Shown here in pieces: positions 705-51,300 of a stretch of 64,000 nt of DNA. The notes below the pieces were generated by a model that had not been told where the DNA came from, did not search any database, and saw only the letters and a list, made by a program, of their open reading frames with translations. Location of the stretch: the IMG/VR virus record IMGVR_UViG_3300036987_000310, positions 1 to 64,000 of that record; one strand, 5' to 3'. How positions within the stretch are numbered: position 1 is the first letter of the stretch; the number at the start of each line of letters is the position of its first letter. The stretch is from a virus (Duplodnaviria > Caudoviricetes). A program made the translations under genes and the position numbers.

Positions 705-3700
705 ATGGGCATTGGACCGTTCACCACATACGCGCCCCCTGGCGTTTACACCCGAACCACTGCAGAACCGGCCGTCGGCCAACTTCTTGGCGGTTTGCGC
801 GTCCCAGTCCTCGTCGGAACCGGGAAAGAGACACTTTCTCAAACCGATTTTGAGATTATCCGCGGATCGAGCAGCGTTGCCGACACCCCGATTTTCGGAG
901 AAGACGCTGCCGGAAGGTGGGTGACGGGCGGGACCAATAGCAATCCAGCCATCGGGCCCCAGGACGGATCATATACCAGGTTTAGGGTTCGCAACTACCC
1001 TGTTGTGGATGGCAATGGCACCGGAAAGGTGACGTACGATCCATCCAAGATTTCAGTGACCGTTAATGGCCAACAAGTCGTTGTTTCTCAGCTTGATGGA
1101 CAAAACGGCATTGTTTCTTTGCTGCTCCCGACCGAGCTGACGGACAATGTGTCCGTCAGCTATTATTTCCATCGAAAAGACACACGCGTTACTGACAATG
1201 TGTCTGGTCAGGTGACGGACGGGTCTGCAGTTCTTATCGCTCCTCAAGCTGAGACATACGACATCACTACGGGAACAAACGATGTTCTCTATCTGATTTT
1301 GGACGATACGACTCCAGTCAGCGTCACCTTGGCTGGTGGAATGCGGACTGCTGCAGAAGTGGCGAACGACATCACTGCGGCGGCTGTCTCTGGCTTGTCT
1401 GCGTCTGTTTACATTGACGCTCAAGGCCTCAGCCACGTTCAGTTGGTTGCTTTGGGCAACATTCTCATTTCGACTGACAGCCCGAACGCTGCTTCTGCTC
1501 TCGGGTTCAACCCCGGGGATTACACGGGGCGCAGCTCTGTGTTTCGCGTTTTTAACGGTCCCATTGTCGACGGGCTTGACGGCGGCATCACCACGACGGA
1601 CACCTCAAAGGTCGTGGTGATGGTGAACGGTGTCCAGGTTATCGCTAGCGCAGTTGATGGAGCCAACCGGTTGGTCACGCTTCCATTTGCTCCGAAAGCC
1701 GGGTCCATCGTCACAATTCAGTACTACTTCAACACGTTCCAGGATACGTTTGACTACCTTCCGAACAGCAACGTTGTCACAGTCGGAAACGTCGGCATCG
1801 CTCCCGGAAGGCGCGACTATGTCAACGGAACTGATTTCATCGTTGTCAATGATCGCGATCAGTCCATTATTCAATGGGGGACGGCGATCCAGGTTGCTAG
1901 TGGTCAAAAGACTGGAAATATCTCATTTGACGGAACGCAGGTGTATGGCCTTCTGGTGGACAATAGGATGTACGGCGCGGAGTGTGAACGGTACACCGAT
2001 TCGGTGACGAACACTGTTTCCACCACCAAGTTTGTCATGCCTTTGACGCCGACGACCGGTAACGGCCGTGACACGCCTCTCGGAACGTCGTTATATCAAA
2101 CCGTCACGAACGGCCGCATTGACTTGCCGACAGACAGGCCTGACCTTGTTACCGTATATATCGGCAAGACTTTCCGGGACGCTTTCTCTCGTCCCGCTGT
2201 TCCTGTCATGGCGGTTGAATCGTCTACTGGAACACTCACTCTCAAGAACCCCGTTCCCGCCGATTATAAGGCGTATGCAACGTTTTGGTATAACACAATC
2301 GTTGACGAGCAGTATACGCTTAAGTGCACTGCTTCCGGCCCTAGCGGAATCGGGAAGTTCACCGTCACGGCTGATTCTAGCGGTCAGCCGATGTTCCAAG
2401 TTCGATTTGGCTCCAAGACGAGTCTGCCTCAGACCGTTCAGTGGCCGTCTGGCGTCGAACGTTTGCCGGATGCGATTCACTATGGCGGAGCTCCAGTTTC
2501 CGAGACCATCACGGTGACGTTTGACAACTCGCTTTTGCCAGCCACCCATGCTTCGTTCTCGAACGCCAGCCCGGGTCCATATGACATATACACGTACTCC
2601 CGCATGTTTGGGAACGTGATTGTCGACGGCACTCCGGTTTCAGTCGATCTTAGCACCGCGTTTGAAGCGCAACTTTTGAGCGATCCGATTGACAACCCCG
2701 CTGCTTTGGTGTTTGCAGCGACCGATTATCTCGCTCTCCGCATCGATGGGGTTGACCTGGATCCAGTTCCGCTGACTGGTTTGACCACCCTCACGGCGGT
2801 GGCTGCGGCAGTCAATGCTTTTGTTGACACCGATGTCCAAACGCACAGCGATGGGTCGGGCACCTTCGCCGATTCAAGCGGTCTTGACACGATCATTGAC
2901 CTTGCCAATGACGTGCGCACGCAATACATCGCGCACTTGGCGGCCGGCACCTGGCACCTTTTGGCTGACTCGACGAACACGATCTTGTCTCCGGCTGCAA
3001 CGAATTGGACTTCTGTTGTAACGTTGCTGAACGAGCTTCGTACCAAGTATACCGGCCACTTGGCAGCCGGTACCTGGCACGGGTCGGGTGACGCAACCAA
3101 TGTTCTGACAGCACTTGCTGTCACGACAGGCAACCCCACAACTGCCAGCATCGCTTTGGCGTTGGCTTTGGTCAACGATCTGCGCACTCAGTATGAAGCA
3201 CATCGCATTGATACCTCGGGTGGACTGGGTACGGAGATCCATAGTGGAGCGGGTGACGCAACCAACGTTGTTACAGTCCTCGCGGCCACCTTCTCGAGCC
3301 TTGGTCTCGCGGTTCCCGTTACTTACGGAACGCAGGCGCTTTTGCTCGTGGCTGGTCGAAACCTGAAGACTCAGACGAACAGCCTGGTGTCGAATGTGAC
3401 TGTTCTCACTCCGACTGGAGTCGGCCAAGTCGACGCTTCTGCAAAGCTTGGCCTGGTTCCCGGAAAAACCGCAAACGGATCGTGGAACGCGATCAACCAG
3501 CCGGCCACTTTGGTTGGAACGATTTCAGAGCCTTTCACTGTTTCTGCAGGCGTTAACGACGGCTTCCTGTTTGGAATCGATGGGGTCAGTTACACGGCAA
3601 CCATCCCCTCCGGGTCGGCCGTGTCGCTTGAGGCTGTCGTCAATTACGTCAATGCATGGTATGCGGGGTCTGCCCCGGCAGTGGACCAAGCAACTTTGTT

Positions 3701-5801
3701 GGCTGACGCCGTCGTGCTGTTGAATAGCCTCAAGACAAAGTACGACACCCACATCCCGAACATTACATATCACCCTGTCGCAGATGCTGCTCACGGCACC
3801 ACTGCTCCGGCAGCAACCAATTTGGCAACGGCCATCACCCTAGCAAACAATATCAAAACACTGTATGCGCTGCACATTGCTAACAGCCCTGGCGCATACC
3901 ACACTGTTGCCGATAGCGTGAATGTAGTCACCGCTCCAGACGCCACGAATCTTCGAAGCCTACTTATCTTGGCGTATGAGCTTAAGACCAAGTACAACAC
4001 GCACATCGTCAGCACTGTTTACCACATCGGCGGCGGAGACGTTGTCAACGGCGAGACGAACTCCATCTCGGAATTGGTCGCCAAGTCTGGGCTCGGCGCA
4101 AACGCTGGGGTGCTCACACTATTCTCCAAGACGAATGACGTCACTTCTTCCGTCACTGTCGGAACTGGAACGGCGAACGCAAAGCTCGGGTTTACAAACA
4201 ACTCGTCGGCTTCGCGACATCAACCGACTCCCGCCGACATCGCTGGGGCTTTGAACGCCAACGCGTCGTTCATCGCCCTTGCTGCGGCGTGGTCGATCAC
4301 GGCTGCTGGTCTTGGATCTTTCTTGCTGATCAATTCCTTGACTGCAGGATTGACATCCACTTTGTCTTTCAGCGGCGCAGCCAATACAGCGTTCGTTGAC
4401 GACACCAACCTTGGGATCTTTCCCGGGACGAGCGGAGACATCGGGGAAGCAGCGAAGAGTGGATACACCGTCACTTCGTCCGCGGGGGCTTCTGGCTCTT
4501 CCGGAACAGGCATTCCCGGACAGACATACACCGACGCTGTCACTGGTTTGCGATTCACCATCCTGCCACTCTCAGTCGGAGACTACTCCAGCGGCGGCAG
4601 TTTCACCATGCTGATTGACTCCACGTTCACTTGCGATGCCAACCTTCCCTGGAAGGCCATCCCGGGTGCGGAAACAACCGTGTTCAACACGACGAACGTG
4701 GGAACTGACAGCACGGCAATCTTGTCGACATATAGCAGAAGCGGCACAGAGCCTCAAATCGGCGATGTGTACTATGTGTCGTATGACTACGCAAAGACGG
4801 ATTTGACTACGGGTCTTTATCGAGACCTCAAGAAGATTCAGTCGAACTTTGGTCTTCCGACTCCAAGTAACCCGCTCTCGCTTGGAGCCCGCTTGGCCAT
4901 GCTCAACGGCTCAGTTCTCGTCGGTTTGAAGCAGGTTGTTCGCGCCACAAACTCTTCACAGGCTTCCGTGGCTGCTTACACTGAGGCCATTGACGAGCAG
5001 CGGAAACCGATTACCGGAAACGTGAAGCCTGACGTCATCACGCCTCTTGTGACTGATCCTCAGGTGTTTGCATTCCTGAACCAGCACTGCGTGTTCATGA
5101 GCGCGCCGCGTCAAGAAGGCGAACGCATCGGCGTCGTTGGTCCTGCCGCAGGAACTTCTTCGCTTGGCGTCCAGTCGATCTCCAAGGCTTTGCTATCAGA
5201 AATGATGGTTGTGGCCTACCCCGACGTTTACGTCATTTCGATTGTGGATGAGCAGGGGAACTCGATCGATCAAGTCGTGGATGGGTCGTTCATGGCAGCC
5301 GCGCTCGCAGGAGCAAGCTGCAATCCGTCTGTTGACGTTGCAACCCCATGGACGCGCCGCAACATCCAGGGCTTCAAGCGGATCGGGCGTGTTCTAGATC
5401 CGACGGAAGCCAACCAGATCGCTGTTGCTGGCGTGACGGTCATGGAACAGGTGGACACCGGGATCCGCGTTCGCCACGGTCTTACGACTCGCATGGACAC
5501 GGTTATCACCAGGACTCCGTCTGTCACTCTCATCATCCACCACGTTCAGCAGTCGATGAGGGAAGTTCTGGATCCGTTCATCGGGCAGAAGTTCTCTTCT
5601 TCTTTGCTCAAGTCTGCTGAAGGCGTCGTGACCGGTTTGTTTGGAAACATGATTTCCCAACAAATTGTCGCCAATGTTGCCGGAATTTCGGCCACAGTTG
5701 ATGAGAACGATCCCACCATCATGAGGACCGAATCAATTTACGTCCCGGTCTTCCCCCTTGAGTATATCCTCTCGAGTCTACAAATTCGTATACGCAGTTG
5801 A
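705..5801 (+). CDS. Contractile tail sheath protein, very large (1698 aa) with inserted accessory domains
   Basis: N-terminal YAPPGVYTRT (sheath PGVY motif). C-terminal sheath-like domain (DGSFMAAALAG…EANQIAVAGVTVMEQ…IRVRHGLTT…LDPFIGQK…VPVFPLEYI). RBS AGGAG at 695-699. Upstream of tube and tape measure. Confidence 0.92.
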   Translation: MGIGPFTTYAPPGVYTRTTAEPAVGQLLGGLRVPVLVGTGKETLSQTDFEIIRGSSSVADTPIFGEDAAGRWVTGGTNSNPAIGPQDGSYTRFRVRNYPVVDGNGTGKVTYDPSKISVTVNGQQVVVSQLDGQNGIVSLLLPTELTDNVSVSYYFHRKDTRVTDNVSGQVTDGSAVLIAPQAETYDITTGTNDVLYLILDDTTPVSVTLAGGMRTAAEVANDITAAAVSGLSASVYIDAQGLSHVQLVALGNILISTDSPNAASALGFNPGDYTGRSSVFRVFNGPIVDGLDGGITTTDTSKVVVMVNGVQVIASAVDGANRLVTLPFAPKAGSIVTIQYYFNTFQDTFDYLPNSNVVTVGNVGIAPGRRDYVNGTDFIVVNDRDQSIIQWGTAIQVASGQKTGNISFDGTQVYGLLVDNRMYGAECERYTDSVTNTVSTTKFVMPLTPTTGNGRDTPLGTSLYQTVTNGRIDLPTDRPDLVTVYIGKTFRDAFSRPAVPVMAVESSTGTLTLKNPVPADYKAYATFWYNTIVDEQYTLKCTASGPSGIGKFTVTADSSGQPMFQVRFGSKTSLPQTVQWPSGVERLPDAIHYGGAPVSETITVTFDNSLLPATHASFSNASPGPYDIYTYSRMFGNVIVDGTPVSVDLSTAFEAQLLSDPIDNPAALVFAATDYLALRIDGVDLDPVPLTGLTTLTAVAAAVNAFVDTDVQTHSDGSGTFADSSGLDTIIDLANDVRTQYIAHLAAGTWHLLADSTNTILSPAATNWTSVVTLLNELRTKYTGHLAAGTWHGSGDATNVLTALAVTTGNPTTASIALALALVNDLRTQYEAHRIDTSGGLGTEIHSGAGDATNVVTVLAATFSSLGLAVPVTYGTQALLLVAGRNLKTQTNSLVSNVTVLTPTGVGQVDASAKLGLVPGKTANGSWNAINQPATLVGTISEPFTVSAGVNDGFLFGIDGVSYTATIPSGSAVSLEAVVNYVNAWYAGSAPAVDQATLLADAVVLLNSLKTKYDTHIPNITYHPVADAAHGTTAPAATNLATAITLANNIKTLYALHIANSPGAYHTVADSVNVVTAPDATNLRSLLILAYELKTKYNTHIVSTVYHIGGGDVVNGETNSISELVAKSGLGANAGVLTLFSKTNDVTSSVTVGTGTANAKLGFTNNSSASRHQPTPADIAGALNANASFIALAAAWSITAAGLGSFLLINSLTAGLTSTLSFSGAANTAFVDDTNLGIFPGTSGDIGEAAKSGYTVTSSAGASGSSGTGIPGQTYTDAVTGLRFTILPLSVGDYSSGGSFTMLIDSTFTCDANLPWKAIPGAETTVFNTTNVGTDSTAILSTYSRSGTEPQIGDVYYVSYDYAKTDLTTGLYRDLKKIQSNFGLPTPSNPLSLGARLAMLNGSVLVGLKQVVRATNSSQASVAAYTEAIDEQRKPITGNVKPDVITPLVTDPQVFAFLNQHCVFMSAPRQEGERIGVVGPAAGTSSLGVQSISKALLSEMMVVAYPDVYVISIVDEQGNSIDQVVDGSFMAAALAGASCNPSVDVATPWTRRNIQGFKRIGRVLDPTEANQIAVAGVTVMEQVDTGIRVRHGLTTRMDTVITRTPSVTLIIHHVQQSMREVLDPFIGQKFSSSLLKSAEGVVTGLFGNMISQQIVANVAGISATVDENDPTIMRTESIYVPVFPLEYILSSLQIRIRS

Positions 5802-5810
5802 TGGAACGAG

Positions 5811-5855
5811 GATTGGTTTGGTAGAGTTGGTTTATGAGCTCTACCAAACCAGTTC
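5811..5855 (+). promoter_or_regulatory. RNA hairpin enclosing the ATG of the GIY-YIG relic
   Basis: Arms TGGTTTGGTAGAGTT (5814-5828) and AGCTCTACCAAACCA (5837-5851) pair over 15 bp with one G-U. ATG 5834 sits in the loop. Confidence 0.7.
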
Positions 5856-5899
5856 GTTACACGGTCTATTCACACTCATATTAAATCTGGACGCCACAG
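5834..5899 (+). pseudogene. Relic of a GIY-YIG homing endonuclease gene (5' ~22 codons, 2-nt deletion)
   Basis: atgagctctaccaaaccagttcgttacacggtctatt..cacactcatattaaatctggacgc aligns codon by codon with the start of 18046 and 58467 (MSSTKPVRYTVY[C]HTHIKSGR). It is frameshifted after Tyr12 and ends where the stop of the opposite-strand ORF 5900..6217 begins. Confidence 0.75.
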
Positions 5900-6217: not shown

Positions 6218-6254
6218 GTTACCATATACTCTAGAATTTTCCGAATTTGCGTTG

Positions 6255-6763: not shown

Positions 6764-6809
6764 GACGTTGTTTTACACTGGCATAAGCCTCTTTTGTTGA
6801 AAGTTACAT

Positions 6810-8264
6810 ATGGGTTCTATGAACAGAATTTCGGCATATTTGCAATCTCTACCCACTAAAGATTACAGTATACCGAATCAGATTGCTGGAGCCATAAACT
6901 ATTTCCTAGACAGCTTTTTCAGCAAGCAGGCTGAGCTGATGGCTCAAGGCGTGGATGATTCTCCTGCTGACCCGAAGACGCATGTTAAAGAAACGTGGAT
7001 AGGATGTGAAATCCATAAGGCCGTGTCGTTAAACCGAACGTATCCGTTTTTTGCGAAAGCCAAAAATGCGTGGGCTTTCGCAAAAATGTTTGAAGGCGAT
7101 CGGTATGACATTGTTCCGTTTTTGGACACATATAAATGGAAAGATGCCGTAAAAGGCTCGTACGAGTATCGGGTTCAGCAGGAATCCATCCAAGTAAGCC
7201 AAACTTCTTCTGTCACGCTTCCGGTTTACGGAACATTCTTTGTGACCGATGAGGTCGGAACAAGAATGATCGTCCACGTGGATTTCGGGTATGAATCAAA
7301 TGTTTGCGTAGTCACTGTCATGACTTCTCCGGACGCAAAATTGTCAGCTGAAAAGTTTTTGAGCAATCTTGACATGAGCGTCGAGGAAAACGACATATAC
7401 TACAAACAGTGCCTGACATTTTTGCGCGGGTTTCTCGGGTTCACTTCAGTTCGCGATACTGGATGGGACGACATCGTTCTCAAGCAAGACATCATCCAAG
7501 AAATTCGCGACAACTCCATAGGCGTGATTGAAAATATGGACAAACTTTCGGCCATAGGGATGGTCCCCAGCCGAAACATCATTCTAATTTCTCCTCCCGG
7601 GATGGCGAAAACAACGATTTTCAGAGCAGTATCCCATGAGGTCGAACAAGCTACGCGCATTTGGTGCACTGGAAAATCGGTTCAGGATGCATCAGACGTG
7701 ACGTCGCTGTTTGAAGCGGCGCGTTCCCTGGCCCCATGCATAGTTTTCATTGAGGACATGGACCTGTTCGGGAGAAGCCGAGGACAACTCTCTGGGTACG
7801 AAAGTCACGTGCTGAACGAGTTTTTGGCTTGTCTTGATGGCATGCATCAAAATTCCGGAATCATCATCATGGCGTCGACAAACGACATTCAGTCAATGGA
7901 CGAAGCGCTTGTCGACAGACCCGGAAGGTTTGACGTCAAAATTGAAATCCCCCACCCGGACGAGCTTGACCGAAGCAAGATGCTTTCCTTGTTCCTTTTG
8001 CGCGTGAATGCCAGGCCGGACTCGTCGGTGACGAAAGACACGTTGAAAACCGTTGTCGACATGACTGATGGGCTGACTGGGGCTTATATTAAAGAGCTTG
8101 CCAACGCCACCGTGATTCGCGCAGTCGCTCGAGGAAACTTTGTCAAAGACGGAGTTTTGTTCAGTGCTGACGATTTGAATGCTTCTGCTGAACAAGTGGT
8201 TCGAAACTACAAAATCGGAAAAACTGCACGCAAAAAGATGCAGGCTGAGATTGTGGTTTCCTAA
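6810..8264 (+). CDS. AAA+ ATPase (classic AAA clade, FtsH/CDC48-like module) with variant Walker A
   Basis: Walker A SPPGMAKTT, Walker B CIVFIEDMD, second region of homology MASTN…MDEALVDRPGRFD, lid motif TDGLTGAYIKEL. Confidence 0.93.
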   Translation: MGSMNRISAYLQSLPTKDYSIPNQIAGAINYFLDSFFSKQAELMAQGVDDSPADPKTHVKETWIGCEIHKAVSLNRTYPFFAKAKNAWAFAKMFEGDRYDIVPFLDTYKWKDAVKGSYEYRVQQESIQVSQTSSVTLPVYGTFFVTDEVGTRMIVHVDFGYESNVCVVTVMTSPDAKLSAEKFLSNLDMSVEENDIYYKQCLTFLRGFLGFTSVRDTGWDDIVLKQDIIQEIRDNSIGVIENMDKLSAIGMVPSRNIILISPPGMAKTTIFRAVSHEVEQATRIWCTGKSVQDASDVTSLFEAARSLAPCIVFIEDMDLFGRSRGQLSGYESHVLNEFLACLDGMHQNSGIIIMASTNDIQSMDEALVDRPGRFDVKIEIPHPDELDRSKMLSLFLLRVNARPDSSVTKDTLKTVVDMTDGLTGAYIKELANATVIRAVARGNFVKDGVLFSADDLNASAEQVVRNYKIGKTARKKMQAEIVVS

Positions 8265-8304
8265 TTTTCAAAGCCTTATGACTCAATAACTCAGAGGTCT
8301 GTTC

Positions 8305-8835: not shown

Positions 8836-8867
8836 GCACGCTCAGCTTTTTCTGCGGCATCTGATGG

Positions 8868-13123: not shown

Positions 13124-13125
13124 CC

Positions 13126-18029: not shown

Positions 18030-18059
18030 TTGGTAGAGTTCATTCATGAGCTCTACCAA
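18030..18059 (+). promoter_or_regulatory. RNA hairpin sequestering the start codon of GIY-YIG 18046
   Basis: TTGGTAGAGTTCA (18030-18042) pairs with TGAGCTCTACCAA (18047-18059): 13 bp, one G-U. The AUG spans the loop and 3' arm. Confidence 0.75.
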
Positions 18060-37567: not shown

Positions 37568-38728
37568 ATGAGCTACGATTTCGCTCTGCAAAAGCTGTGC
37601 AGTCATGAGATCCGAATGGAGAACGGTCTATACGATAGGGATACAAGCACAATTAGATTTAGGACGCCACCGTCAAATCAGAACGTGACCGTTTGGGTCG
37701 ATGGCGTGAAAGTTCCGCAGGCCGGATTGTGGTCGTACGCCACGCTAATTTTCACAAATGCAGGTCCTTACAGGATAAAGCGTGGCGAAAATGACTTGCT
37801 CTACATGCAGGTTGGAAATGAGCCGCCCACGTTCGTTCAGCTTTTGACCGGGAACGTGCGGGCTAAGGATATGGTCAAGGATTTGGCTTTGAAGGTGCCG
37901 TCTCTGGTTTTTTCGGTGGAGCGAGAAAGGGTCGTAATCAAGTCAAAAACTCCTTTCCATGGGGCGGCTTTTACTTTTTCAGACCCTAGGTGGACCGATC
38001 GAGCGCAGTCTCTTCCCACCACTGCAAGAGTTTTAGCTGCTTATTCCAGGCTCGGAATTGTTCCGGGGAGAGTTGTGACTGGAAAAATGCTGTTCCCATC
38101 ATGGTCGATAGAAGGAGATGTTTTGTCGACATGGGATAAAGACAGGGTTGTGAAATTTCATAAAAGGATACCGAATCAGGCCCCGGTGACGCATGTGAGC
38201 TATGTCACATACCCTACATATTGTAGACGTTGTGGCGGGACGAAGGTTGAGTTTGACTACAATATAGTTGGAACGACGTACGAGAGAGTCACAGACGCTG
38301 ATCTTTTGTCTCAGGAATTCGACAAGTTTTTGTTCACCAGGCTCGGATCCCATTGGAAATGGACATGGCTCGGGTCCAGACTCATTGATCGCATAGGCGG
38401 GAAGGGGTCAACTGGACAAACGACTGTCAACTCCATGCTGTCAATGGACATTAGCCAAGCTTTCTCCGTATATCAAAACATCAAGATGCAGCAAAGCCAA
38501 AACTCTCCGGAGCAACAGGTTACGGATGCCGAATACCCGTTTTCCGTACGCAACGTCAATGTCAATTTGCTTCCAGACGACCCGACTGTGGCTCTTGTTG
38601 GGATAACGGTTGTGTGTAGGAGCTTGGAGCCCGTGTACCTCAAGAGGGTTGTCGGCAACCCGAATCCTTACACAATAGGTTCCAACCTAAGTTTGGCCAC
38701 CACTCCAGATTTTCTCCTTAGAGGGTGA
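37568..38728 (+). CDS. Baseplate wedge protein with a gp25-like C-terminal domain
   Basis: Directly upstream of baseplate-J. C-terminal FDKFLFTRLGSH…GSRLIDRIG…VRNVNVNLLPDDPTVALVGITV fits the gp25/W pattern. Contains CRRC. Confidence 0.6.
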   Translation: MSYDFALQKLCSHEIRMENGLYDRDTSTIRFRTPPSNQNVTVWVDGVKVPQAGLWSYATLIFTNAGPYRIKRGENDLLYMQVGNEPPTFVQLLTGNVRAKDMVKDLALKVPSLVFSVERERVVIKSKTPFHGAAFTFSDPRWTDRAQSLPTTARVLAAYSRLGIVPGRVVTGKMLFPSWSIEGDVLSTWDKDRVVKFHKRIPNQAPVTHVSYVTYPTYCRRCGGTKVEFDYNIVGTTYERVTDADLLSQEFDKFLFTRLGSHWKWTWLGSRLIDRIGGKGSTGQTTVNSMLSMDISQAFSVYQNIKMQQSQNSPEQQVTDAEYPFSVRNVNVNLLPDDPTVALVGITVVCRSLEPVYLKRVVGNPNPYTIGSNLSLATTPDFLLRG

Positions 38729-38760
38729 CGGCCAATTTTTTATTGCGTACCGTATGGTAC

Positions 38761-41700
38761 ATGGCCACTATCCCTAAGCTGAACTATCCGGACGGTTCCG
38801 GAACGACCACCGGTCTCACTATCACTACGAATGTGAGTGAGATGTCGTTTTCTGGAACCGTTGATGCGAACACAGTCGACATTCAAATCGACGTGAACGG
38901 ATCGGGCTTTGTTTCAGACCCGACTCTCGTCGAGATTTCGGCCGGCGTCTTTCGCGTTCCCAATTCATCAAGTTTTCCCGACGGATTTCAGTTTGAACAT
39001 GGAGAAAACTCCATTCGACTGAGGGCTGTCGATCTTAGCGGCGGCGTAAGCCCTCCGGCAGTCATCTCGGTGTCAGTGTTTACCGACGACGAGCTTGGAG
39101 TCACGACGCAGTCTCCTACGGGCGTTGTGGTGAACAGGAGGGCAAAATCCGTCGACATATGCTGGTCTGACGTCATGACTGAAGGGGCCAGCGGATACAA
39201 CATATATGCTGCCACGGGGTCTGGGGGGACGGGGTCCGGGTACCTAAAAGTCAATAAAGACATGATATCCGTCGATTCCCCGACTGTGTCCGAAATATAC
39301 GAAAACCCAGTTGGAAACTTTCAGTATGAACTTCCGGAAGCTGATGGGAGCAGCGATCTTCAAATCGTAACGGACACGACAGACCCCGCGAACGGGGAAG
39401 TCATCGAACGAAAGTCGGTAAACTGGATATCCCTTGTTGGACAGTCTAGATATAAACTGTCTGTGGATGTTGTGGCCACGATTCCCGTGAAACGGTTCGT
39501 TTTCAATCACGACAGAGCCAGAGGCGTAGGCAGCGGGATTATGAACTCCGACGTGTTTGGGACCGTTGGAAATGACGATCCGCTTTTTTACGTTGTAACA
39601 GCTCTGTACTTTGACGTGTCCACAGGGGGTTACCTAGAGAGCAGGTTTTCCCAAGAGCTTTCCGCGGCCCCGCTACCTCTTGATAAAACTGTTCGCGGCA
39701 TCAACATTAGGAACCAGTCAACTGTTGCTCGAGACTATATTGAAGAAGTTCAAAAGGCTGAGCCGGTCTTGTCTTTGATTCCGGGGTCCACTGTCCGAGA
39801 AGTTCACATAGAACCGTTTGCAAACGAAGCTCAAAGGGTGTACTTCCTTCTTGACTTCGTGCACAGAGCGAAATCTTTTACTGCTTTGTTGGCAGTCGAC
39901 GACCCAAACTCCACCGGGACGAGCATTCCGGTGGACAATTCGCAGTATAAGTCAAATCTGAGATCGGCGCTGAACCTTGCTGACAACACAACAACCCAAA
40001 GCTTAATAGATGGAGCTTTCGATTCTCTTGCTCAGAATTTCGGAGTTCCTCGTCAGGGGGCTCGAGCAGCGACGGTGGTGCAAACTTTCTATACGACCAT
40101 TCTCCCCACGCGCGATCTTCTAGTGTCTCAAAATGCGTCCGTTTCGTCATCTATAGACAGCACAGCGCCCAGGTTTGTGTCTCGCGGCGCGGTGTTCATG
40201 TATGCCAATAGAGCTTCTCAGTATTGGAACGTTGAAAAAAGCCGATATGAGGTCAAAGTTGAGATGATTGCAGAGTCCCCGGGGTCTGCTGGGAACGTGT
40301 CAGCAAATGTTTTGGACACTGTTGTCTCAGGCGCCACTGGGCTCAAGACCTTGAACGAACAAGCAGCAAACTTCGGCAGGGACGCTCAAAGTAATCTTGA
40401 GCTTGCTGAGTCTGCCATGCTTGCTTTGACATCTTTGGACACTGGAACTGAAGGAGGATATTATAAGTCTGCGGTGTCCATACCCGGCGTTCTGGAAGTA
40501 AAAATTGTCAAGTCTGGCGACCCGTTTATGATGCGCGACTGGGACCCGGTTCGAGGCAAGCATGTGGGGGGAAAAGTAGACGTTTACGTGAAGGGAACAA
40601 TTGAGAGAACAATTGTTGAAAGCTTCGCGTTCCAGTTCACAATCGCTAAAAATGTTAGGTTTGAGGTTGTTGACGCGACAGCCTTGACGTTCAGAGCCTT
40701 GGACTCGCGATTGACTCCGTCCAATCCGATTCAAGAAATCATGAATAACCCTTCGCAAGATTTGGGGGTCAGGAATCACTCGACAACTCCGACTCAGTCT
40801 TACGATTTGACCGGTGCGATCATCGTCAATTACAACACAATTCAGTTGAACTCCGCCATTCCTCAGCCTGTGACAATGTTTGATGATTTCGTCGAAGGCG
40901 ATTACAGATACCGGAGCAACAACCAGTTCATAGCTAGCGTGCAACCGATTCGGAGGGTTTCTTCTGTCGTTGGGGAGGTGTCGGGAACTCTGGATTCGAC
41001 GCTTGGGTACGACTTGTACAAGACGCAAGATCCGCTTCTCGAGGGAGAAAGCTCGCTGGCCAAGGACTATGTGTCCATAAATCAAGTAGATGGAATTCCT
41101 GCTGGAAACATGGTCCAGGTCAATGATGAGCAGCACGTTTTGATAGGGCAATTTGAAGAGCCGATGGGATCTGTCGGAATAAACTCTCTCACTCTATCCG
41201 TATACAGCCGAGATAGGCTCATCGAGTACCAGGGGCCAAATTCTGCAAATCCAGATTATCTTATTGTCGAAGGAACGCAAACGACGGCTTCGAGGATAGT
41301 TAGGACAGCGCTTTCCAACATAGACAGTGGAGACACTGTTTCCATTGATTACCAGCACGATGAAAACTTTTACGTGACTTATGTTGTGAACGACGTCGTT
41401 CAGCGCGTGGCGTCGGTTGTGTCGAACATGCGTCACGTCACTGCAGATGTTGCTGTTAAACAGTCCTTGGACAACCCTGTGTCTATGGAGACGATAATTC
41501 AACTACTTCCGAATTCAAACCAGTCCACCGTCGATTCAAACGTGAGGACTTCGCTCACGAGGCTCACGGATTTGCGCGGCCTAGGCAATCCGATACATCA
41601 ATCGGACGCCACGGGCGCCATCGAAGCTATTTTTGGCGTCGACTATCTAGTGCAACCTCTTTCCAGGTTCACTCTTCAAACAGGGGCATATCGCATTAGA

Positions 41701-42189
41701 GAAAAGGTGTACTCCGACTATGAGTTTATGCCTGGTTTGAGCTATGGAGCGAATGCCGTATATATTTTGACGCAGCCTCTGCCTTTCAACACCACTGATG
41801 GAGGAGGCCCCAACACTTTGCATGTCGGCGTCTACCTTGACGAACAAGTCATGACGAAAGCTCCGTCTTTATATGACGTCGGGAGGGGCTACCAGCAATG
41901 GTGGGTAATCGGGAGGCTAGGGGCTGTCATAATTGGATATTCTGACGACGACACGCTATACCCGGATTTTTTGACCGCCGAAGCTGTTGAAGCAGAACGT
42001 GTTCGAAGAACGGCTAACAAGGTTGTCGTATCTCTTGACGCTAGCGTTACGCCTTTTGACACGCCCGACAATCATTCTTTTGCAGCCACATACATTGTCG
42101 AGAACGACAAGGGCGTCAAAGACATATCTGTGTCTCCAATAGAATACCTCACGATCGGCGATGTTACACTGACATACAAGTCCGCGTAG
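38761..42189 (+). CDS. Baseplate J / gp6-like wedge protein, large
   Basis: AESPGSAGNVSAN…LNEQAANFGRDAQSNLELAES is the baseplate-J core motif, followed by AVSIPGVLEVKIV. ATG 38761 (the track uses GTG 38725). Confidence 0.85.
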   Translation: MATIPKLNYPDGSGTTTGLTITTNVSEMSFSGTVDANTVDIQIDVNGSGFVSDPTLVEISAGVFRVPNSSSFPDGFQFEHGENSIRLRAVDLSGGVSPPAVISVSVFTDDELGVTTQSPTGVVVNRRAKSVDICWSDVMTEGASGYNIYAATGSGGTGSGYLKVNKDMISVDSPTVSEIYENPVGNFQYELPEADGSSDLQIVTDTTDPANGEVIERKSVNWISLVGQSRYKLSVDVVATIPVKRFVFNHDRARGVGSGIMNSDVFGTVGNDDPLFYVVTALYFDVSTGGYLESRFSQELSAAPLPLDKTVRGINIRNQSTVARDYIEEVQKAEPVLSLIPGSTVREVHIEPFANEAQRVYFLLDFVHRAKSFTALLAVDDPNSTGTSIPVDNSQYKSNLRSALNLADNTTTQSLIDGAFDSLAQNFGVPRQGARAATVVQTFYTTILPTRDLLVSQNASVSSSIDSTAPRFVSRGAVFMYANRASQYWNVEKSRYEVKVEMIAESPGSAGNVSANVLDTVVSGATGLKTLNEQAANFGRDAQSNLELAESAMLALTSLDTGTEGGYYKSAVSIPGVLEVKIVKSGDPFMMRDWDPVRGKHVGGKVDVYVKGTIERTIVESFAFQFTIAKNVRFEVVDATALTFRALDSRLTPSNPIQEIMNNPSQDLGVRNHSTTPTQSYDLTGAIIVNYNTIQLNSAIPQPVTMFDDFVEGDYRYRSNNQFIASVQPIRRVSSVVGEVSGTLDSTLGYDLYKTQDPLLEGESSLAKDYVSINQVDGIPAGNMVQVNDEQHVLIGQFEEPMGSVGINSLTLSVYSRDRLIEYQGPNSANPDYLIVEGTQTTASRIVRTALSNIDSGDTVSIDYQHDENFYVTYVVNDVVQRVASVVSNMRHVTADVAVKQSLDNPVSMETIIQLLPNSNQSTVDSNVRTSLTRLTDLRGLGNPIHQSDATGAIEAIFGVDYLVQPLSRFTLQTGAYRIREKVYSDYEFMPGLSYGANAVYILTQPLPFNTTDGGGPNTLHVGVYLDEQVMTKAPSLYDVGRGYQQWWVIGRLGAVIIGYSDDDTLYPDFLTAEAVEAERVRRTANKVVVSLDASVTPFDTPDNHSFAATYIVENDKGVKDISVSPIEYLTIGDVTLTYKSA

Positions 42190-42197
42190 GAGTTTCC

Positions 42198-43001: not shown

Positions 43002-43024
43002 ACTTTAATGAGCAGGGAAACGCA

Positions 43025-45382
43025 ATGACGACGGTTGGAATTTTCGTTCACGATCTTGGGTCTAGGGAGGTAAGGGTTCGTTTCGACCTTCCCGTTCCAG
43101 ACGCCGAGACTCCGTCGGATTATGTGTTTTCGTCGACGTCAGGTTATGTTCCGTCAATTGTTAGCGTGTCTTACTACGACGCCAACATGACGTCGGTGAG
43201 AGTTTTGTTTAATGCGGCGCTCACAAATGGAGAAACATATTCTTGTCAGATTTCGAATCTTCAGTCCTCTGACGGGTCTTTGGTGACTACGGCCCCGTTT
43301 GACTTTGTTGCTGCTGACGAAGATCTTCCGCAAATTCTGGGGGCTTATCAGTCTACTCGAAGATGCGTTGACATAGTTTGCGACAGACCTGTAGCAACAA
43401 CTTCCACAAGCGCTTCCGCACGCATAAAAGAGCCTGGGGGCGCATCTGTTGCAATGTCCTTGGTTCCTTGGACTGCCGACCAACACGAAAACTCTGTCAG
43501 GTTCTCATACGGCTCTGCTCCTACAGCAACAGAATATGCCATACAATTTTCCGACATAGTGGACATGTCCGGAAACACGTGCAGGAGCGGGGAAATTCCT
43601 TTGGATTTAGCCTATGGGCCGACGGGGTACGCGGATTTGGTTCAGGCAAGAGCTACACTGGCCACGGTTGCTGACATCAGCAACGCTGAAGGATTTGCTG
43701 CGACTGTTTTGCGTGTGTTTTTTAACTGCCCGATGTTTGCAAGCGACGTGTTGAACGAGTCGAAATGGGTAGTAAGCCAAAACGGATCTCATGTCGCTGC
43801 GGATTTGACGAATGCAATCACGGCTCCCAACGCGATCGACACATCATCGTTTGTGAACCTGGCAAATGATGGGAAAGCGATGGCGAACGCTCATTTGGCT
43901 TCCCATGCTCATCTTGTCACGGATTTTGTCAATCAAATCTTTACTGCTGACGCCATCGATTATGCAACAGCGTCAAATTTGGCTGATGAAGTGTTTAGCG
44001 TGTTGTCTGCACATTACGAGCGGACAGACATGCACCTATATGCCGATCACGTTCATGTTTTGGACTCTTCCATATCGGATCCAATGGATAGACTGAACTC
44101 TTTGAAAGAAAAGTTCAATGAACACCTTGAGGAGTCTTATGGCCTTGAGTTCTCTGATGCTTATGATCCAATCGGCCCGATTGTGAATTTTGCGTCGTCC
44201 GGAAACGCTTCGTTTGTGTTGGACAGGTATACATGGTTTGCAGATTTGCACATTGCATCGGATGCTGACCGAGCTATTTTTTCAATAAGCATGACGTCTA
44301 TCCGTAGCGAAGACCTTGCAAGCTCTGTTACGAGCACGATTTTGGCTGGCCCGTTGAATGGACCGCCAGCGGTCATGTCCGTTTCTAGATCCTTCCGCGG
44401 AGCGATTGTGAGGATGAACTGTGACACTGATGTTGAGGGCGCTGACCTTTGCTCGTTGACGGATGTGGACTGTGGCGTTTCTGTGAAGTTTTCTGTTCGC
44501 GCGTCGTCTTCCGTGCCTGTTTTGCTATGGGCGCTAAACAACGTTCTTCAAGCATACAGAATGCACATAAGCTACTCCACTCATCCGCTTCTTGGAGCAT
44601 TGCACAAAAATCCGGATGTAACGAACACCGTTTCTTTTTCCAACTATGTCACAGACATGGATTTGGACGTTTTGATTCAAAAAACCAATTGGTTGAAGTG
44701 GAAAATCGACGCCCATATGACGTCTGAGCTTTACCACTATGGAGCCGATGTTCCGATTGAAGTTCCGGACGCGGTTGATTTCAACTCTTTAGAAAAGCTG
44801 ATACTCAGTCTCCGCAACCGTTTGTCTCGTCACAACTCGTCTGGTTTTTCTCAGATTCGCGACATCATTCCGGCAACGAGAAGTCTCCATGCCCATCCTG
44901 GAGCTGGCATCGTTTCGGCAAACATCGGAAACCTTGTTGTCGTATCTTTTGACGGCGCCATAGACGGAAACTCTTTGGTTTTCAAGGCTCCTGTTTTGAA
45001 AACGTGGAAAGACAACCGTCCAAACGTGGTGGAACGCGTGATTCCTGGTTTCGTAAACATTGAGTTCATAGCGTCTGACAACCTTCCGACTCTCACTTCG
45101 GCAGTTGCTCGCCCGGGTTTTTCTGCGTCAAGTCCGAGTCCATACCTCATGTCGGACACGATTGAATTGTACTTGTCGAAGCCTATGAGGAATCAAACCA
45201 TTTCCATGGGAACAAACATTGTCATTACTGGAGCTTCCATAGTGGCATCGGACGCTTGGTGGACGAACGATCGAACGATTTCTGTTCAAGTGTTGAGCAT
45301 GCTTGCCGCAACGTATTCCATTGAAGCGTTCGACATGTGCGATTTTGCCGGAAACCTTGTACCAACTCTGATTGTGTCTTGA
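43025..45382 (+). CDS. Structural protein with Ig-like domains and two His-repeat triplets
   Basis: Ig-like (Big_5-type) termini (VRVLFNAALTNGETYSCQISNL; IELYLSKPM…YSIEAFDMCDFAGN) and six His-containing helical repeats. Confidence 0.8.
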   Translation: MTTVGIFVHDLGSREVRVRFDLPVPDAETPSDYVFSSTSGYVPSIVSVSYYDANMTSVRVLFNAALTNGETYSCQISNLQSSDGSLVTTAPFDFVAADEDLPQILGAYQSTRRCVDIVCDRPVATTSTSASARIKEPGGASVAMSLVPWTADQHENSVRFSYGSAPTATEYAIQFSDIVDMSGNTCRSGEIPLDLAYGPTGYADLVQARATLATVADISNAEGFAATVLRVFFNCPMFASDVLNESKWVVSQNGSHVAADLTNAITAPNAIDTSSFVNLANDGKAMANAHLASHAHLVTDFVNQIFTADAIDYATASNLADEVFSVLSAHYERTDMHLYADHVHVLDSSISDPMDRLNSLKEKFNEHLEESYGLEFSDAYDPIGPIVNFASSGNASFVLDRYTWFADLHIASDADRAIFSISMTSIRSEDLASSVTSTILAGPLNGPPAVMSVSRSFRGAIVRMNCDTDVEGADLCSLTDVDCGVSVKFSVRASSSVPVLLWALNNVLQAYRMHISYSTHPLLGALHKNPDVTNTVSFSNYVTDMDLDVLIQKTNWLKWKIDAHMTSELYHYGADVPIEVPDAVDFNSLEKLILSLRNRLSRHNSSGFSQIRDIIPATRSLHAHPGAGIVSANIGNLVVVSFDGAIDGNSLVFKAPVLKTWKDNRPNVVERVIPGFVNIEFIASDNLPTLTSAVARPGFSASSPSPYLMSDTIELYLSKPMRNQTISMGTNIVITGASIVASDAWWTNDRTISVQVLSMLAATYSIEAFDMCDFAGNLVPTLIVS

Positions 45383-45391
45383 GGAGGAAAA

Positions 45392-48300
45392 GTGGCGCCT
45401 GTTTCACTGTCAGGGTTGAGCTCGATTGCGGATAGAATACTGTTCACGCGTCGTGCTCCCATTGTGAAACAACCTTTGTCGCTTTTGACTGGAGGGGACC
45501 TAGTAATACTTTCTGAAACGTCAGTCAGAATCGTGTCCGCGAATTTCACTTCTGACGACATTGGAAAAACTCTTGAGATTTCCGGAAGCTATGGAGCCAG
45601 AAACGATGGACTGTTTTCCATAGTCGAGGTTCTAAACTCGGTCACAGTTGAATTGGGCGGGGCGAACTTTGACATGGTTGATGAAACCGCCATGACTGAG
45701 GCGCTTGTCGCTTTGTCAAACAACTTGAAGGCTGTTTACAACAGGCACAGAATCCACATAGACTTGAGGCTCGACGGACCTCCGTACACAACACACTTGG
45801 TGAACGACACCACAAACGATGTTGTGTCCCCAGACGCCTCCACGCTTCCGATGTGCATAACATTGTTGAATGAGCTCAGAAGCAAATTCTCCAACCATAT
45901 TTCAAACTCTGGAGACGACTTTCACATAAACATTGACCAGTGGAACGGGGTTGTGTTTGGAGAAGCTGACGGCCTAGCGAGCGCTGTCATGCTTGCCAAC
46001 GAGTTGAGGATAAGATACGAATCGCATAGAATAGAGCGCAGGTCTCACTCTCTTGGCGACGCAGACAGTCGTGTTACTGCTCCGCGCGTGAATGTTGTTA
46101 GACAGTCTTCGCCAGGATCTCTTGTTGGTCCGTTTTTCTGGACTTTGTACGATCCAAGGCTCGGAATGGTTGCAGACTCTCCAAGCGATGTCGTGGTTCG
46201 TGTGAACGGAACCCCGGTTGACGCTGAGGCAGTTTTTGGGATGCTTGGGGCCGTCGTTCTTCCGTTGAAGCCAACCCCAACGGACACTGTGGCAATTGAT
46301 TATGACTTTTTAAACAACCCTCCTGCAAGATTTTTGCGCCTCAATTCCCCGGAGTTTGTCCTTAACCAGGATAAGAATAATGGCATGATGGGGTTTCCAT
46401 CGCACAGGTATCGCGCTAGGTCTTACCTGATTGACCCTGGAAACACGCCAGACTTCACATCCGCTGTATCTCCATATAAGGCTGGGTGGAAGTATAAAGC
46501 ATGTGAGAGGCAGTATACGGCCGCTTCAAACGACCCAGCTACGCTATTGCTAAACTCGCCTTTCAAGAGAATAAAATACCCTGTACTGCGCACATTTGTA
46601 AAAGAGACCACGATATCGTACGATCCTGTTGCTCTTCCCCAGGACGCGTCGGACCCATGGAACTTGGAAGGAGAGGGGCAGTTTTATCTTTCTAGTGGTC
46701 TTCTCACGATAACGGACAACGACGTTCAAAATACGCTAGACAGCAAGCCTCCGTTTTTCACGCACACGTCTGACATAATCACCGACAGCATAGTGTCTGC
46801 TGCTTTCAGAGCTCGCGTTGACGAGTCTCAGCTAGATGGCGTTTTTACTGGCGTCGGGTTTGGCGTGTCTGACGGGTTTGATGTCATACTTGTCGGCTTC
46901 GTAAAAACAGAAGCCACGAACCTGTCGTCTTCCATAGCTATCGCAAACGACATAAAAGCAAAGTTCAACCTTCACCTTGTTGAACCCACGGTGCATGGGA
47001 CAGACGATTTGTCTGATGTGATTGGAATTGTTGACGCTAGAGACTTGAGTTCTTTGATCATTTTGTTGAACGCGCTAAAGCTGAAGTTCAACACCCATGT
47101 TTTGAAAGCCGACCCTACTTTTGTCAGCGTCGACGTTCACAAAGACTTTGACACAAACGAGATTTTGTCTGATGACGCCGAAAACTTGGACACATCTCTG
47201 ACTCTTGCAAACGAATTGCGATCGAAAATTGACGCCCACAGAACATCCACGGGCATTCACTTCGTTGACGACACTTTCAACGAAATTCCTCTCACCATGC
47301 AGGTTGGCATCCTAACCAACTCTGGGGCGTATGAATTCCAAGACAGCTGGGAATCCGGAGCTGTCAACTGGACTGTGTTGAGAACATACAGAGTGCACAG
47401 AGATTCTGACGGCAACGCCAGTTTATATATGAGCGGGGACGTGGACCCTCTGGCAACGGTTTCAAAAGCAGACCTTCCTTCCATTTCTGACTTTGGAGGG
47501 AAATTCGACCCTGTGCAGCAGGTGTTTTTTGGGTCAATTAGTAGAGAAGCCACATCTGTCAGCACATGGAATTTGATTCGTGCGAATATAAGCCCAGTGA
47601 ATTCAAACTTGTTGGAAGATAACAAATCTGTGGCTTTTGACGGGTCTACGACACCTGAACTTGACCTCATTAGTCCGTGGGTCACGCTAGGACACGGCGG
47701 CACAGAGCGCACGTATCCAGGGTCTCCCGGGGGCGTCCAAGTTGACTCGACTTGTTCCGCATACCCGTCTGAGATTGTAGCAATGGGGGCCAGTTCTGGG
47801 GCGTTTCGCGGGTATATGCGGTTTGAACCCATGCTTGCCCCGTCAACGTCCTGCGCTATTGAGTTTGAATCCTCCGTTGATTACTACACGTTTGGCCTCG
47901 GAAATCGGTCCAACGGATTGTTTATGGACGACGGGCAGCTTTCGGTTCATTTTGCATTCTTATACTTCTCCCCGAGCCCTGCCCATGTTGTCGGATCGGC
48001 AAGCACTTTTTCAGTTAACTCATCTGATAAGATGTACATCAGTTTTGACGGAAGCGCGTCAAAAACTGTGAGTTTCACATCAACTTTAACGTCGGCAGCT
48101 GACGTGGCTTCTGTGATAAACGCAACAGTCGGATCCTCCATTGCTGGAGACGACGGGTTGAATCACGTTGAAATAACATATGGAACGGGGGCTTCTTCAT
48201 ACATTTCGATAGACGGTGGCTCCGCGTCTCAAAAACTCGGGCTAACTGTCGGAAAATATTTTGGCCGAGATTCAAATCCGGAGCCTCGAGTCTCGTGGTT

Positions 48301-51300
48301 TAGCGAAGCTCCGCCAGATTCTGTCGACATACCATGGACAAAGTACGGATCCGCCAGCGTTCAAATGATTGGAGCTGTTCATTCTCCTGTCATGCGCTTG
48401 ACTGATTCGATTGCTACAGAATATGTCACGTTTTCCATGTTGAACCCTATTGTCGTCACTGACGTCATGGAGCCAGCGAACGATTGGAAGCTGGACATCC
48501 GTTTGACAGTTGACAGTTTCACCGCTGGCGACGCCGTTCCCGCCACGATTCCGCTTGTCAATTTGCATTTTGCCGGCGTTTTGGTGAACGTGGACGAAGG
48601 GTACGGGGGAAAAAACATTGAGCTCCATTGTTCAGTGGACGCTTCTGGAAATCCATATTTGAACCTTGTCACTTACAATGCAGGAACAGACACAATAGAC
48701 CCTATCGCTCAGTATTTGTTTTCTTGGAACGATGGGGAAGCTCACAGTTTTAACATATTCACAAACAAGGGAGCTGACCAGCTTTTTGTGTATGCCGATG
48801 GCGCGCAGCTCATCCCAACCGCCGGCATTCCGGCATATTCGTCGTTCGGGACGGCAACTGGGGCGACCCCGTCTGTTTCCTTTGGATCTGGAGCGGAAGC
48901 AGTGTCGAATGTCGACTTGAAGACGGCAGTGTCCACAGTCGACTGGGAATCCGTGGCCGTGTTTAAAGACAGCAAACTGTCTGATCTGACGGCTTCTTCC
49001 AAAAGATATATCGGGATTCACCGTGGCGGAAATCCCGCCTTACTCAGTTCTTGGTATGTCGCGAATGTGGACTGGGCATCATTCCACACATACAGGATAG
49101 TAAGAGACCCAGGAAGTTTCATAGCTGTCTACTTGGATGGAGGAAACACCCCCGTCTTGTCCGTTAGCTATGACCCAATAAGGCTTCCTCCTTGCTCTTC
49201 CAGCTTTTTCAACGAAATAACCAACGATCGGTCCATCGTTGCTTGGGGAACGTTTGACCCCCAGGAAATTAGCAGAACTAGATGGAAATTCGTCAATTAT
49301 TCGATGGGCAAGCTTACTCTGACAGATAGGCTTGTCCCCCCACATCAGGTTTTGAACCAGTCAAACGTGATGGCATCTCCGGATCACGCGAACACTGGGG
49401 TTAAACACAGTCACTTTGGATTCTCCGTGTATTCGGGAGGAACTCCAAACGACGATTTCATGGCTGACTTAAACGTTCCAGCATACACGATTCTTGGCGA
49501 AAGAGTTCCTCCTGTTCCAAAGACTCAAGACTTGGAGTCCAGGGGAGGCCTAGTCAGAAGCGCTGTTCCTGCAATGGACGTTTCCGCAGTGGATTTCATA
49601 AACCAAAAGGGGCTTCTTGGACAATTTGAAAACGACGATGAAAATCTTGTTTCGGTTGAGGACTCCATAAGTCCTACATATGCCGTTTCCGTCGTAGTCG
49701 ACGTGGCGAACGATGCTTCAACAGCGTATGAAAGTCATCGTGTTCGCCATGATGTTGCCGCAAACGTCCACTCCGTGGACGATGTTCTGAATATCATAAC
49801 AACATCAGCTGCTTCCGATCTGCCGACGTCCATTGTCAGACTGATAGATTATAAAGCAGTTTTCAATGCCCACATTGTCGATGCCGTTTCGCACCTTCCA
49901 TCTGACGCGGCGAACATGATTTCGTCTCCAGATCCGACAGACCTAGATTCTTCAATCGTTCTTTCGAACGAGATATCGAGTCGATATGGAAACCACCTTC
50001 TAAAAGGATTTTTTCACTTCATACCGCCTGGCGCTCCATACTTTGACAACTTAGTAACGGTTGCTGACGCCACGGACGCCGCTACATGTTCGACGTTGTT
50101 GAACGACGCCACGGCTGGCATAAAGCAAAGATTTTTGGAACATGTAGCGTCTCTGAACTGGCATGGAAAGACGGCAAACTATTCTGTGACGCTAAACTAT
50201 GGATCCACATCGGTTCCAATTTCTTTCATCATAACTCTGGCAAACCATCTGAAGCGCTTGTTTAATCAACACATGACCACGGATGGCGTTCATGTGTTGA
50301 ACGACTCCGTCAATGTGATCTTGACTAGCGACGCGCACGATGTTGACACAGCGATTGCCCTGACCAATGAGGTTAAAGCTGCGTATAACGCGCACGTTGT
50401 TGGACAGCTTGTGCATTCGATCATTGGAACACAAGACGCATATTATCACGCGCCAATTGCAAACCCGTTACAATCCGTCGTTGAGCTGGCAAACGACATT
50501 TTGACCACATTCAATGCGCACGCAGTGTTTCTTAAGTCCCATGTTGAAAAAGACATAGACAGCCTTGTGAAAGCTCAACCCGCGTATGACACTACGTCCG
50601 CAATTGAACTGGCAAACGTTCTCAAATCTTCGTTCAACGCGCATAGAACTGCAGAACATAGGGGGAGCAAAGTGCACGTTCGCGATGACGTAGTAAACAT
50701 CGTGTCTACTGCCGATGCCACGGACTTGGACACCGCTTCAAGTTTGTTGAATGCTGTGAAGTCAGCGTACGAAAGCCATCGAGAAGAAGTTGGAGTTCAT
50801 GGGTCCGCCGCTTTCATACGCTTGGAAGCGCCTTCCCGAGTTCTATACGAAGGAATGAAATTTTGGACGTCTGAGGACGGTGTCGAAGGCCTTGTGTCTT
50901 CTTTTTCAGACGATGAGACATGGCATATTGACGCAGTCAAAAATCAGTCGGACAAATCGTTGACGTACACCGGGGAAGCTTTGCCAGAACAAGCTGTTCT
51001 TGTTAGCATTTTTGCAGATCCGACAAAAATCGTGGATGGTGACACGCTTGTTCTTGAGATTGATCGAAATCATCCTTCGACAATAACTTTTCAGGCCTCC
51101 GACACGACTCTTTTAGATGTCGTTGACAGAATAAACGCGACAGTGCCATCGTGCGCTTCTGTCGAGGGTTCTGAAATAAGGCTTGAAAGTCCGGCCCCGG
51201 GTCCGACTTCGTCTGTTATTGTGAACAGTGGGACAGCGCTTGAAAAACTAGGTTTTTCAATCCCCCATCACTCTCCTTGGTATATAATTTCAAACAATCC

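Follow-up and report, generated by a model that had tools for sequence, protein, structure and literature searches.

Histidine triplets in three giant virion genes

The window analyzed here, 64,000 nucleotides in length, is the first 64 kb of a tailed-phage genome (IMG/VR virus record IMGVR_UViG_3300036987_000310) that is complete at 376,674 bp and has direct terminal repeats. It holds a run of co-oriented giant virion genes, three of which encode a repeat of about 41 amino acids (aa) that comes in groups of three: the tail sheath gene (P0001, 1698 aa; 705..5801, + strand), the gene for a 785-aa virion protein (P0002; 43025..45382, +) and the gene for a giant virion protein of 2102 aa (P0003; 45392..51700, +). 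In each unit a helix with His at its end leads into H-x3-D-x2-N and on to a DATDL helix cap, and a typical stretch of translation reads DATDL-xTAIxLANxLKxxYNxH-x6-H-x3-D-x2-N-x-V-x3-DATDL.

The original prediction, made from the letters of the window, had described a helix-His/His-x3-Asp unit of about 40-45 aa in some 27 copies, forming about nine domains in three proteins. The translations and two kinds of profile confirm this description. A hidden Markov model (HMM) of the unit, built from 15 seed units and run on all six-frame open reading frames (ORFs) of the window, gave matches confined to ORFs 705-5801, 43025-45382 and 45392-51700, with per-unit E-values down to 1e-16. It found six units in P0001 in a 3+3 layout (starting at aa 729, 770, 819 and 1002, 1042, 1085) and 14 in P0003, where a fifteenth near aa 1567 was recognized by eye and is covered by the triplet profile, giving 3+3+9; matches to the two triplets of P0002 were weaker than those in P0001 and P0003. 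Whole triplets were captured in two further profiles, A1 from the nine window triplets and A2 from 127 triplets, mostly of other genomes, with a mean column identity of 15%. Against the whole 376,674-bp genome, A2 matched exactly nine places, all in the three ORFs (sheath two, P0002 two, P0003 five), with E-values from 6e-40 to 5e-21, so the figure of nine domains in three proteins is exact.

In the sheath protein, triplet A occupies aa 722-868 (2868..3308, +; A2 match 2865-3284, E 8.5e-35) and triplet B, the one chosen for modeling, aa 991-1132 (3675..4100, +; A2 match 3678-4064, E 6.1e-40), each with all six His. In triplet B the helix-terminal His are residues 1016, 1057 and 1100 (A2 positions 26, 67 and 110), the loop His 1023, 1066 and 1107, and the Asp 1027, 1070 and 1112. 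The first triplet of P0002 (aa 265-401; 43817..44227, +; A2 match 43847-44170, E 4.9e-21; unit HMM matches at aa 247-272, 275 and 357) is degenerate: an H-x3-D-x2-N linker element (43766-43843, aa 247-272) precedes its first helix, and its third unit is without the second, trailing His. The second triplet of that protein spans aa 496-640 (44510..44944, +; A2 match 44492-44866, E 3.6e-24). P0003 carries five triplets with unannotated domains between them, namely one at aa 94-248 (45671..46135, +; A2 match 45674-46096, E 4.6e-37), one at aa 506-645 (46907..47326, +; A2 match 46907-47317, E 7.4e-38) and a nine-unit array (49673..50836, +) made up of aa 1428-1562, 1563-1690 and 1688-1815 (A2 matches 49667-50065, 50054-50440 and 50447-50812). 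All six His are present in seven of the nine triplets of this phage, both P0002 triplets being degenerate.

The window triplets share 22-34% protein identity, and the DNA of the sheath region contains a single 40-nt repeat, 80% identical; judged from sequence, the repeat copies are old at the DNA level. An artefact of recent duplication was rejected because there is almost no DNA-level repeat, and an artefact of chance or low complexity was rejected on the E-values and on the matches obtained with the foreign-genome profile A2.

The sheath core of P0001 is formed by its N-terminus and by aa ~1302-1698, with about 1200 aa of inserted modules between. In tblastn searches, aa 1302-1698 resembled annotated sheaths of Bacillus phage G (gp178, E 1e-26), of Myrna-like mycobacteriophages and of Tunturiibacter phage Tunturi_5, and this likeness in the conserved C-terminal sheath domain confirms P0001 as a phage tail sheath. 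Pfam sheath models gave no match to P0001, and the nearest sheaths among GenBank phage records (LR745208, Tunturi_5) are without the repeat.

Copy number moves in threes

We recovered 36 orthologous sheath loci from IMG/VR, on contigs of up to 436 kb. Their unit counts were 0, 3, 6, 3+3 and 9, and also 2, 3+2, 11 and a few more irregular values. On inspection, the 11 proved to be 12, with four clear period-three copies, and both 2s proved to be 3 with a divergent third unit, while in the 3+2 case the sixth helix appears degenerate and is without His. Sheath orthologues thus stand at 0, 3, 6, 9 or 12 units, and therefore the triplet is the module. Similarly, among 155 representative proteins, arrays of three (143), six (24) and nine (14) units dominate, with others of 12, 15 and 18, and 76-80% of arrays of at least three units are multiples of three, as compared to a chance expectation of about 33%. 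Homologs with counts untied to three would speak against the module; the non-multiples inspected (four sheath loci and several long arrays) were in fact missed units. The claim that clusters come in multiples of three is therefore supported by the sheath orthologues and by the wider survey. The claim that these are always triplets with six His holds with a reservation: the third unit is short and without the second His in many relatives.

Two forms of the triplet can be told apart. In the closed form all three units possess a return linker, bringing the N and C termini together, which suits insertion, as in this sheath. In the serial form the third unit is only about 24 aa long and has no linker, so that the chain runs straight into the next triplet with a period of about 105 aa, for up to six triplets. 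One sheath orthologue (L033; IMGVR_UViG_3300029288_000185) has four tandem triplets (12 units) at aa ~860-1330 in a clear period-three pattern; there is no return linker between its third unit and the following triplet, an arrangement suggestive of helices that run on unbroken in one coaxial rod. In three other orthologues (L043-L045) an unrelated module of about 85 aa stands between two triplets (aa ~957-1041), and the third helix of the second triplet is without His. A further sheath (L042; IMGVR_UViG_3300032401_000040), a 1585-aa open frame cut by the contig end so that about 67 N-terminal residues are missing, shows no detectable unit, and the triplets are therefore dispensable for the sheath itself.

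A predicted single-chain three-helix bundle

It had been proposed that three repeats fold into a single-chain, pseudo-three-fold helical bundle, and structure prediction supports this. AlphaFold2 (AF2), run with alignment A2 on sheath triplet B (P0001 aa 991-1132), returned a confident three-helix model (predicted local distance difference test, pLDDT, 92.5; predicted template modeling score, pTM, 0.88) with helices of about 20 residues at model positions 5-26, 50-69 and 93-111, connected by 23-residue linkers without regular secondary structure. The best structural match of this model is gp41-5, an engineered single-chain five-helix bundle (PDB 3o3x) whose topology agrees with it, and a parallel, pseudo-three-fold core is therefore implied by the model. 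The view that three repeats make one single-chain pseudo-three-fold helical domain is thus well supported by prediction, and a parallel topology appears likely. Such a topology is unusual, for in the confident model one chain makes a parallel three-helix bundle for which trimeric fibres need three.

When the modeled triplet was searched with Foldseek, a check that had been proposed together with the model itself, nothing in the PDB or BFVD was returned at E<1. A fold search of AFDB clusters gave only two matches, both uncharacterized family members, and a shape search of the ESM Atlas gave one unnamed, mostly viral cluster with a template modeling (TM) score of 0.73. For the nine-unit array (P0003 aa 1420-1830), AF2 predicted nine long helices (pLDDT 79.6, pTM 0.57), with dips in confidence at several linkers, two triplet boundaries among them, a profile that fits three bundles on flexible joints.

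Conservation and placement of the histidines

Across the 127 triplets of A2, the helix-terminal His is conserved at 100/100/100% in units 1/2/3, the second His at 98/99/65%, the Asp at 92/86/58% and the helix Asn at 91/81/61%. The low value for the second His of the third unit arises because the third unit of serial triplets has no linker. In the wider set of 1410 unit matches in 155 proteins, both His are at about 100% where aligned, with the Asp at 91% and the Asn at 78%; within the linker, the unit-level survey gave 91% for the Asp and 73% for the Asn. The His is never swapped for Gln or Asn in about 1300 units, and all other positions vary. The expectation of two nearly invariant His and a mostly conserved Asp therefore holds for the first His throughout and for the remainder in units 1 and 2, and gives way in unit 3 (second His 65%, Asp 58%). 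Units in the same position of different triplets are no more alike than units in different positions (unit 1 to unit 1, 0.305 vs unit 1 to unit 2, 0.302).

In the triplet alignment, the column-averaged hydrophobic moment is strongest at the heptad periodicity. In each of the three helices the terminal His is 8-11 degrees off the center of the hydrophobic face and lines up with the Leu/Ile 7 and 14 residues upstream. The His is thus in phase with the heptad core and therefore forms its last layer, so that the three His should face the axis and would converge at one end of the bundle. The conserved helix Asn points about 144 degrees away from the core face, to the outside, and an ion site made by Asn in the core (N@d) was rejected for that reason.

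We also folded three separate copies of one 46-aa unit (P0001 aa 1038-1083) together with Zn, using ESMFold2. This run took no alignment, and its interaction prediction score from aligned errors (ipSAE), which leaves Zn out of account, was 0.47 vs 0.13 for the best control; for calibration, among proteins of solved structure, 21 of 30 pairs of one chain scored this high, as against 0 of 23 single chains. The predicted interface comprises a/d positions 1040/1043/1047/1050/1054, His1057, the loop His1066, Asp1070 and linker residues, and it supports the view that His and Asp would lie between units; this support does not extend to a metal site.

A large family, mostly metagenomic

To estimate the extent of the family, the A1 profile was scored against 1.84 billion representatives. 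This search revealed 1768 cluster representatives (50% clustering) at E<=1e-3, of which 173 reached E<=1e-30. The top matches are orthologues of P0003 of 1.9-2.6 thousand aa, with the same layout of 3+3+many units. At the other extreme are small relatives of 168-199 aa, each consisting of an N-terminal part of about 50 aa and exactly one triplet. In three of the four examined (L003, L004 and L052) the gene lies directly after the major head protein gene and before the genes for the head-tail connector, sheath and tube, and the gene 5' of it matches phrog_9953 'major head protein' with E-values of 1e-13 to 5e-23. The fourth (L005) follows a portal gene. Because they occupy the classic position of a decoration gene after the capsid gene, these single-triplet proteins are probable head decoration proteins. 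In L004, a small HNH endonuclease gene (7752-7997) is inserted between the major capsid gene and the single-triplet relative.

Searches of described families returned no significant match to the repeat, in agreement with the claim that it belongs to no named family. Pfam-A and NCBIfam gave no relevant match over the repeats, whether with whole proteins, isolated triplets or small homologues, and the proposed HMM search of families thus produced no match to a well-described non-metal family. Two profiles run against PDB sequences gave chance matches only (triosephosphate isomerase, E 0.06) and no phage protein. A single sub-threshold match came from the PHROGs, where phrog_6994 'head fiber protein' aligned through positions ~29-57 of its 67 to window triplets with E-values of 0.03, 0.74 and 0.96 or not at all, and to the small relatives with E-values of 2e-8 to 2e-3. 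This points to an overlap with one repeat unit, not to membership of the window proteins. When the nine-unit array and the small homologues were compared by tblastn with 50,697 GenBank phage records, a single match came up, the environmental record MW202476, and a word-indexed homologue search with A2 found only two proteins, without names. The family is not known from any cultured phage. Looking up the clusters of the relatives yielded no informative names, and a search of the literature found no description of the repeat. Taken from sequence comparison, then, the domain family is large, mostly if not all metagenomic, and has no significant counterpart in Pfam, NCBIfam or the PDB. Some of the 'dark' sequence of huge phages, in the roughly 1000-aa inserts of giant sheaths and in 2000-aa baseplate-side proteins, is accounted for by this domain, which annotators can now name.

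Neighboring genes and the baseplate assignment

The original prediction assigned the repeat to the sheath and to two baseplate proteins. The first of these assignments stood, by tblastn, and the second is one of position. A gene for a Baseplate J-like wedge protein lies at 38725..42189 (+; Pfam Baseplate_J, E 3.2e-10), and P0002 and P0003 are called baseplate proteins because both genes are downstream of it, which is the whole basis of the label. In P0002, an N-terminal Ig-like domain (Pfam Big_5, E 7.6e-7) was the sole significant Pfam match in the scan of the repeat proteins, and it is outside the repeats. PHROGs gave no match for the adjoining baseplate genes or for the non-repeat parts of P0002 and P0003; the baseplate role therefore remains positional, and from position P0002 and P0003 would belong to a baseplate/fibre module.

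Shortly 3' of the sheath gene is a gene for an AAA+ ATPase (6810-8264, +; Pfam AAA, E 1.5e-22), an order of genes less familiar in phage tails than in extracellular contractile injection systems. A GIY-YIG domain protein (18046-19089, +; E 1e-8), probably a homing endonuclease, is encoded among the giant virion genes. Directly after P0003 comes a gene (52271-57427, +) whose 1718-aa product has five Laminin_G_3 domains (E 2.6e-97) and weakly resembles the N-terminal receptor-binding part of clostridial neurotoxins; it is probably the distal adhesin.

Discussion

On balance we consider it somewhat more likely than not that the triplet is an autonomous, His-capped domain used as a portable virion module, with a His cluster whose likeliest role would be to hold a metal. 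In this model three consecutive units would build one domain, about 125-145 aa long, in which a single chain makes a parallel three-helix coiled coil with pseudo-three-fold symmetry. After each helix of about 20 residues, a non-regular linker of about 23 residues would lead the chain back along the bundle, and all three helices would thus begin at one end. The invariant helix-terminal His would be the last core 'd' residue, with three such His facing the axis at one end, and the loop His seven residues later (H-x6-H) would add two or three more at that end. The likeliest role of the resulting cluster of five or six His would be to hold one metal ion, of the Zn, Fe or Ni class, as a staple across the bundle's open end. 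The linker Asp and Asn, together with the outward Asn of the helix, most likely zip the linker onto the helices and would not be metal ligands. As a portable virion-surface module, in which a decoration or spacer role may be supposed, the domain occurs in several forms. In smaller phages it is a protein of its own behind a short N-terminal anchor, probably a head decoration, and its gene comes just after that for the major capsid protein. In a clade of phages of 240-436 kb it is an insert in the sheath and in proteins on the baseplate side. It is also found as a rod, with up to six triplets strung together. Functionally it resembles a rigid surface element open to insertion, like a piece of trimeric fibre made monomeric, and would serve in decoration, spacing or adhesion.

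The original prediction had offered either one six-His site or three His-His-Asp sites. One axial His cluster appears likelier than separate sites, given a first His directed at the axis and an Asp four residues further along, on a non-helical segment. That the cluster binds metal is plausible, falling a little short of an even chance in our estimate. Indirectly in its favor are the absence of any substitution of the His in about 1300 units, a first His that faces the core, another His at that end after seven more residues, the predicted position of both His at interfaces between units, and two kinds of precedent: trimeric phage fibres stapled on their axes by His-bound metal, and designed His3 coiled coils. 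Tentatively, and with somewhat greater reserve, we suggest that the triplet may be a natural fold for metal binding that has not been described before: one chain forming a pseudo-three-fold coiled coil in which five or six invariant His would bind one Fe, Zn or Ni, with many hundreds of copies per virion on the sheath, the baseplate and, in other phages, the head.

Several observations weigh against the metal-holding module. The second His of the third unit, at 65%, means that a strict six-His site is not universal, and the P0002 triplets are degenerate yet kept. The three-copy prediction had neither an alignment nor a score that takes account of Zn. A buried polar layer of His can be kept for folding specificity or register alone, and searches of the PDB by sequence and by fold found no family member with a solved structure or experimental data.

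The alternative that survives best keeps the fold and the role and dispenses with the metal. Here the His layer and the loop His would make a buried polar network of hydrogen bonds (His-His, His-Asp, His-backbone) that holds the helices parallel and in register, closes the end of the bundle and may also be a latch that responds to pH. Coiled coils are well known to set their register by polar layers in the core; moreover the second His tracks the return linker, falling to 65% in unit 3, where the linker is often absent, and the linker Asp and Asn (91% and 73%) are conserved as a helix-linker zipper would be. However, a His that is never Gln or Asn in about 1300 units is a pattern more typical of a ligand than of a hydrogen-bond partner, and five or six imidazoles without a cation would repel one another when protonated. 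We regard this alternative as rather unlikely, but as one to be taken seriously. Even then, the triplet would be a clean case of a trimeric fibre motif turned into a monomeric, insertable module.

An improbable alternative is that the inserts of adjoining sheath or baseplate subunits swap helices and so lock the extended tail. The predicted self-association of a single unit (ipSAE 0.47 vs 0.13 for the best control) is what would be expected of such pairing, but the intrachain model is highly confident, copy number moves in threes, for which swapping would have no need, and the stand-alone proteins are exactly one triplet. Least probable is a catalytic role, with His-His-Asp as a metal-dependent or His/Asp hydrolase site repeated along the virion to act on host surface polymers, as only the H...H-x3-D conservation and the tail and baseplate location suggest it, while Pfam, NCBIfam and the PDB show no likeness to enzyme families, a small helical bundle is without a pocket-forming scaffold, and use in head decoration and in rods of up to 18 units suits a structural module.

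Returning to the His-capped metal-holding module, its nearest known systems include gp41-5 (PDB 3o3x) and the six-helix bundles of class I fusion proteins. On phage heads, the phi29 gp8.5 head fibre is a homotrimer that forms a three-stranded helix-turn-helix supercoil. The small relatives, by gene position, would resemble it and phrog_6994 in placing helical repeat modules on the head; unlike gp8.5, which is a homotrimer, they carry the triplet in one chain by our model, and the phrog_6994 match spans only some 30 positions of one unit. Among designed proteins, the TRI and CoilSer peptides are three-stranded coiled coils in which a His3 core layer binds Zn or Cu. The predicted geometry of the triplet is like theirs, in that His would occupy an a/d layer in the core of three parallel coiled helices, but those peptides are de novo, consist of three separate chains, have no second-shell loop His and have no natural or virion context. 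If metal is bound, the triplet would be a new natural metal site for protein designers, who build His3 coiled coils by hand.

Also comparable are the places on the three-fold axis where the His of trimeric phage fibres and spikes bind metal, namely the HxH-Fe sites of the T4 gp37 tip, the Zn site of T4 gp12 and the Fe site at the apex of the P2 gpV and phi92 gp138 spikes. Like the gp37, gp12 and gpV sites, the triplet is predicted to place three-fold-related pairs of His on the axis of an elongated virion surface structure, two per repeat or chain and up to six ligands in all. Those sites, however, belong to beta-structured homotrimers with HxH, whereas here there is one chain, which is alpha-helical, with H-x6-H; the HxH of an intertwined beta homotrimer, which marks those proteins, is absent from the repeat, and no PDB sequence or fold matched it. 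If the metal-holding reading is true, the triplet would be a helical, one-chain counterpart of the fibre HxH sites, the virions of a widespread group of environmental phages would be substantial carriers of trace metals, and estimates of how much environmental iron and zinc is bound to phages would be affected.

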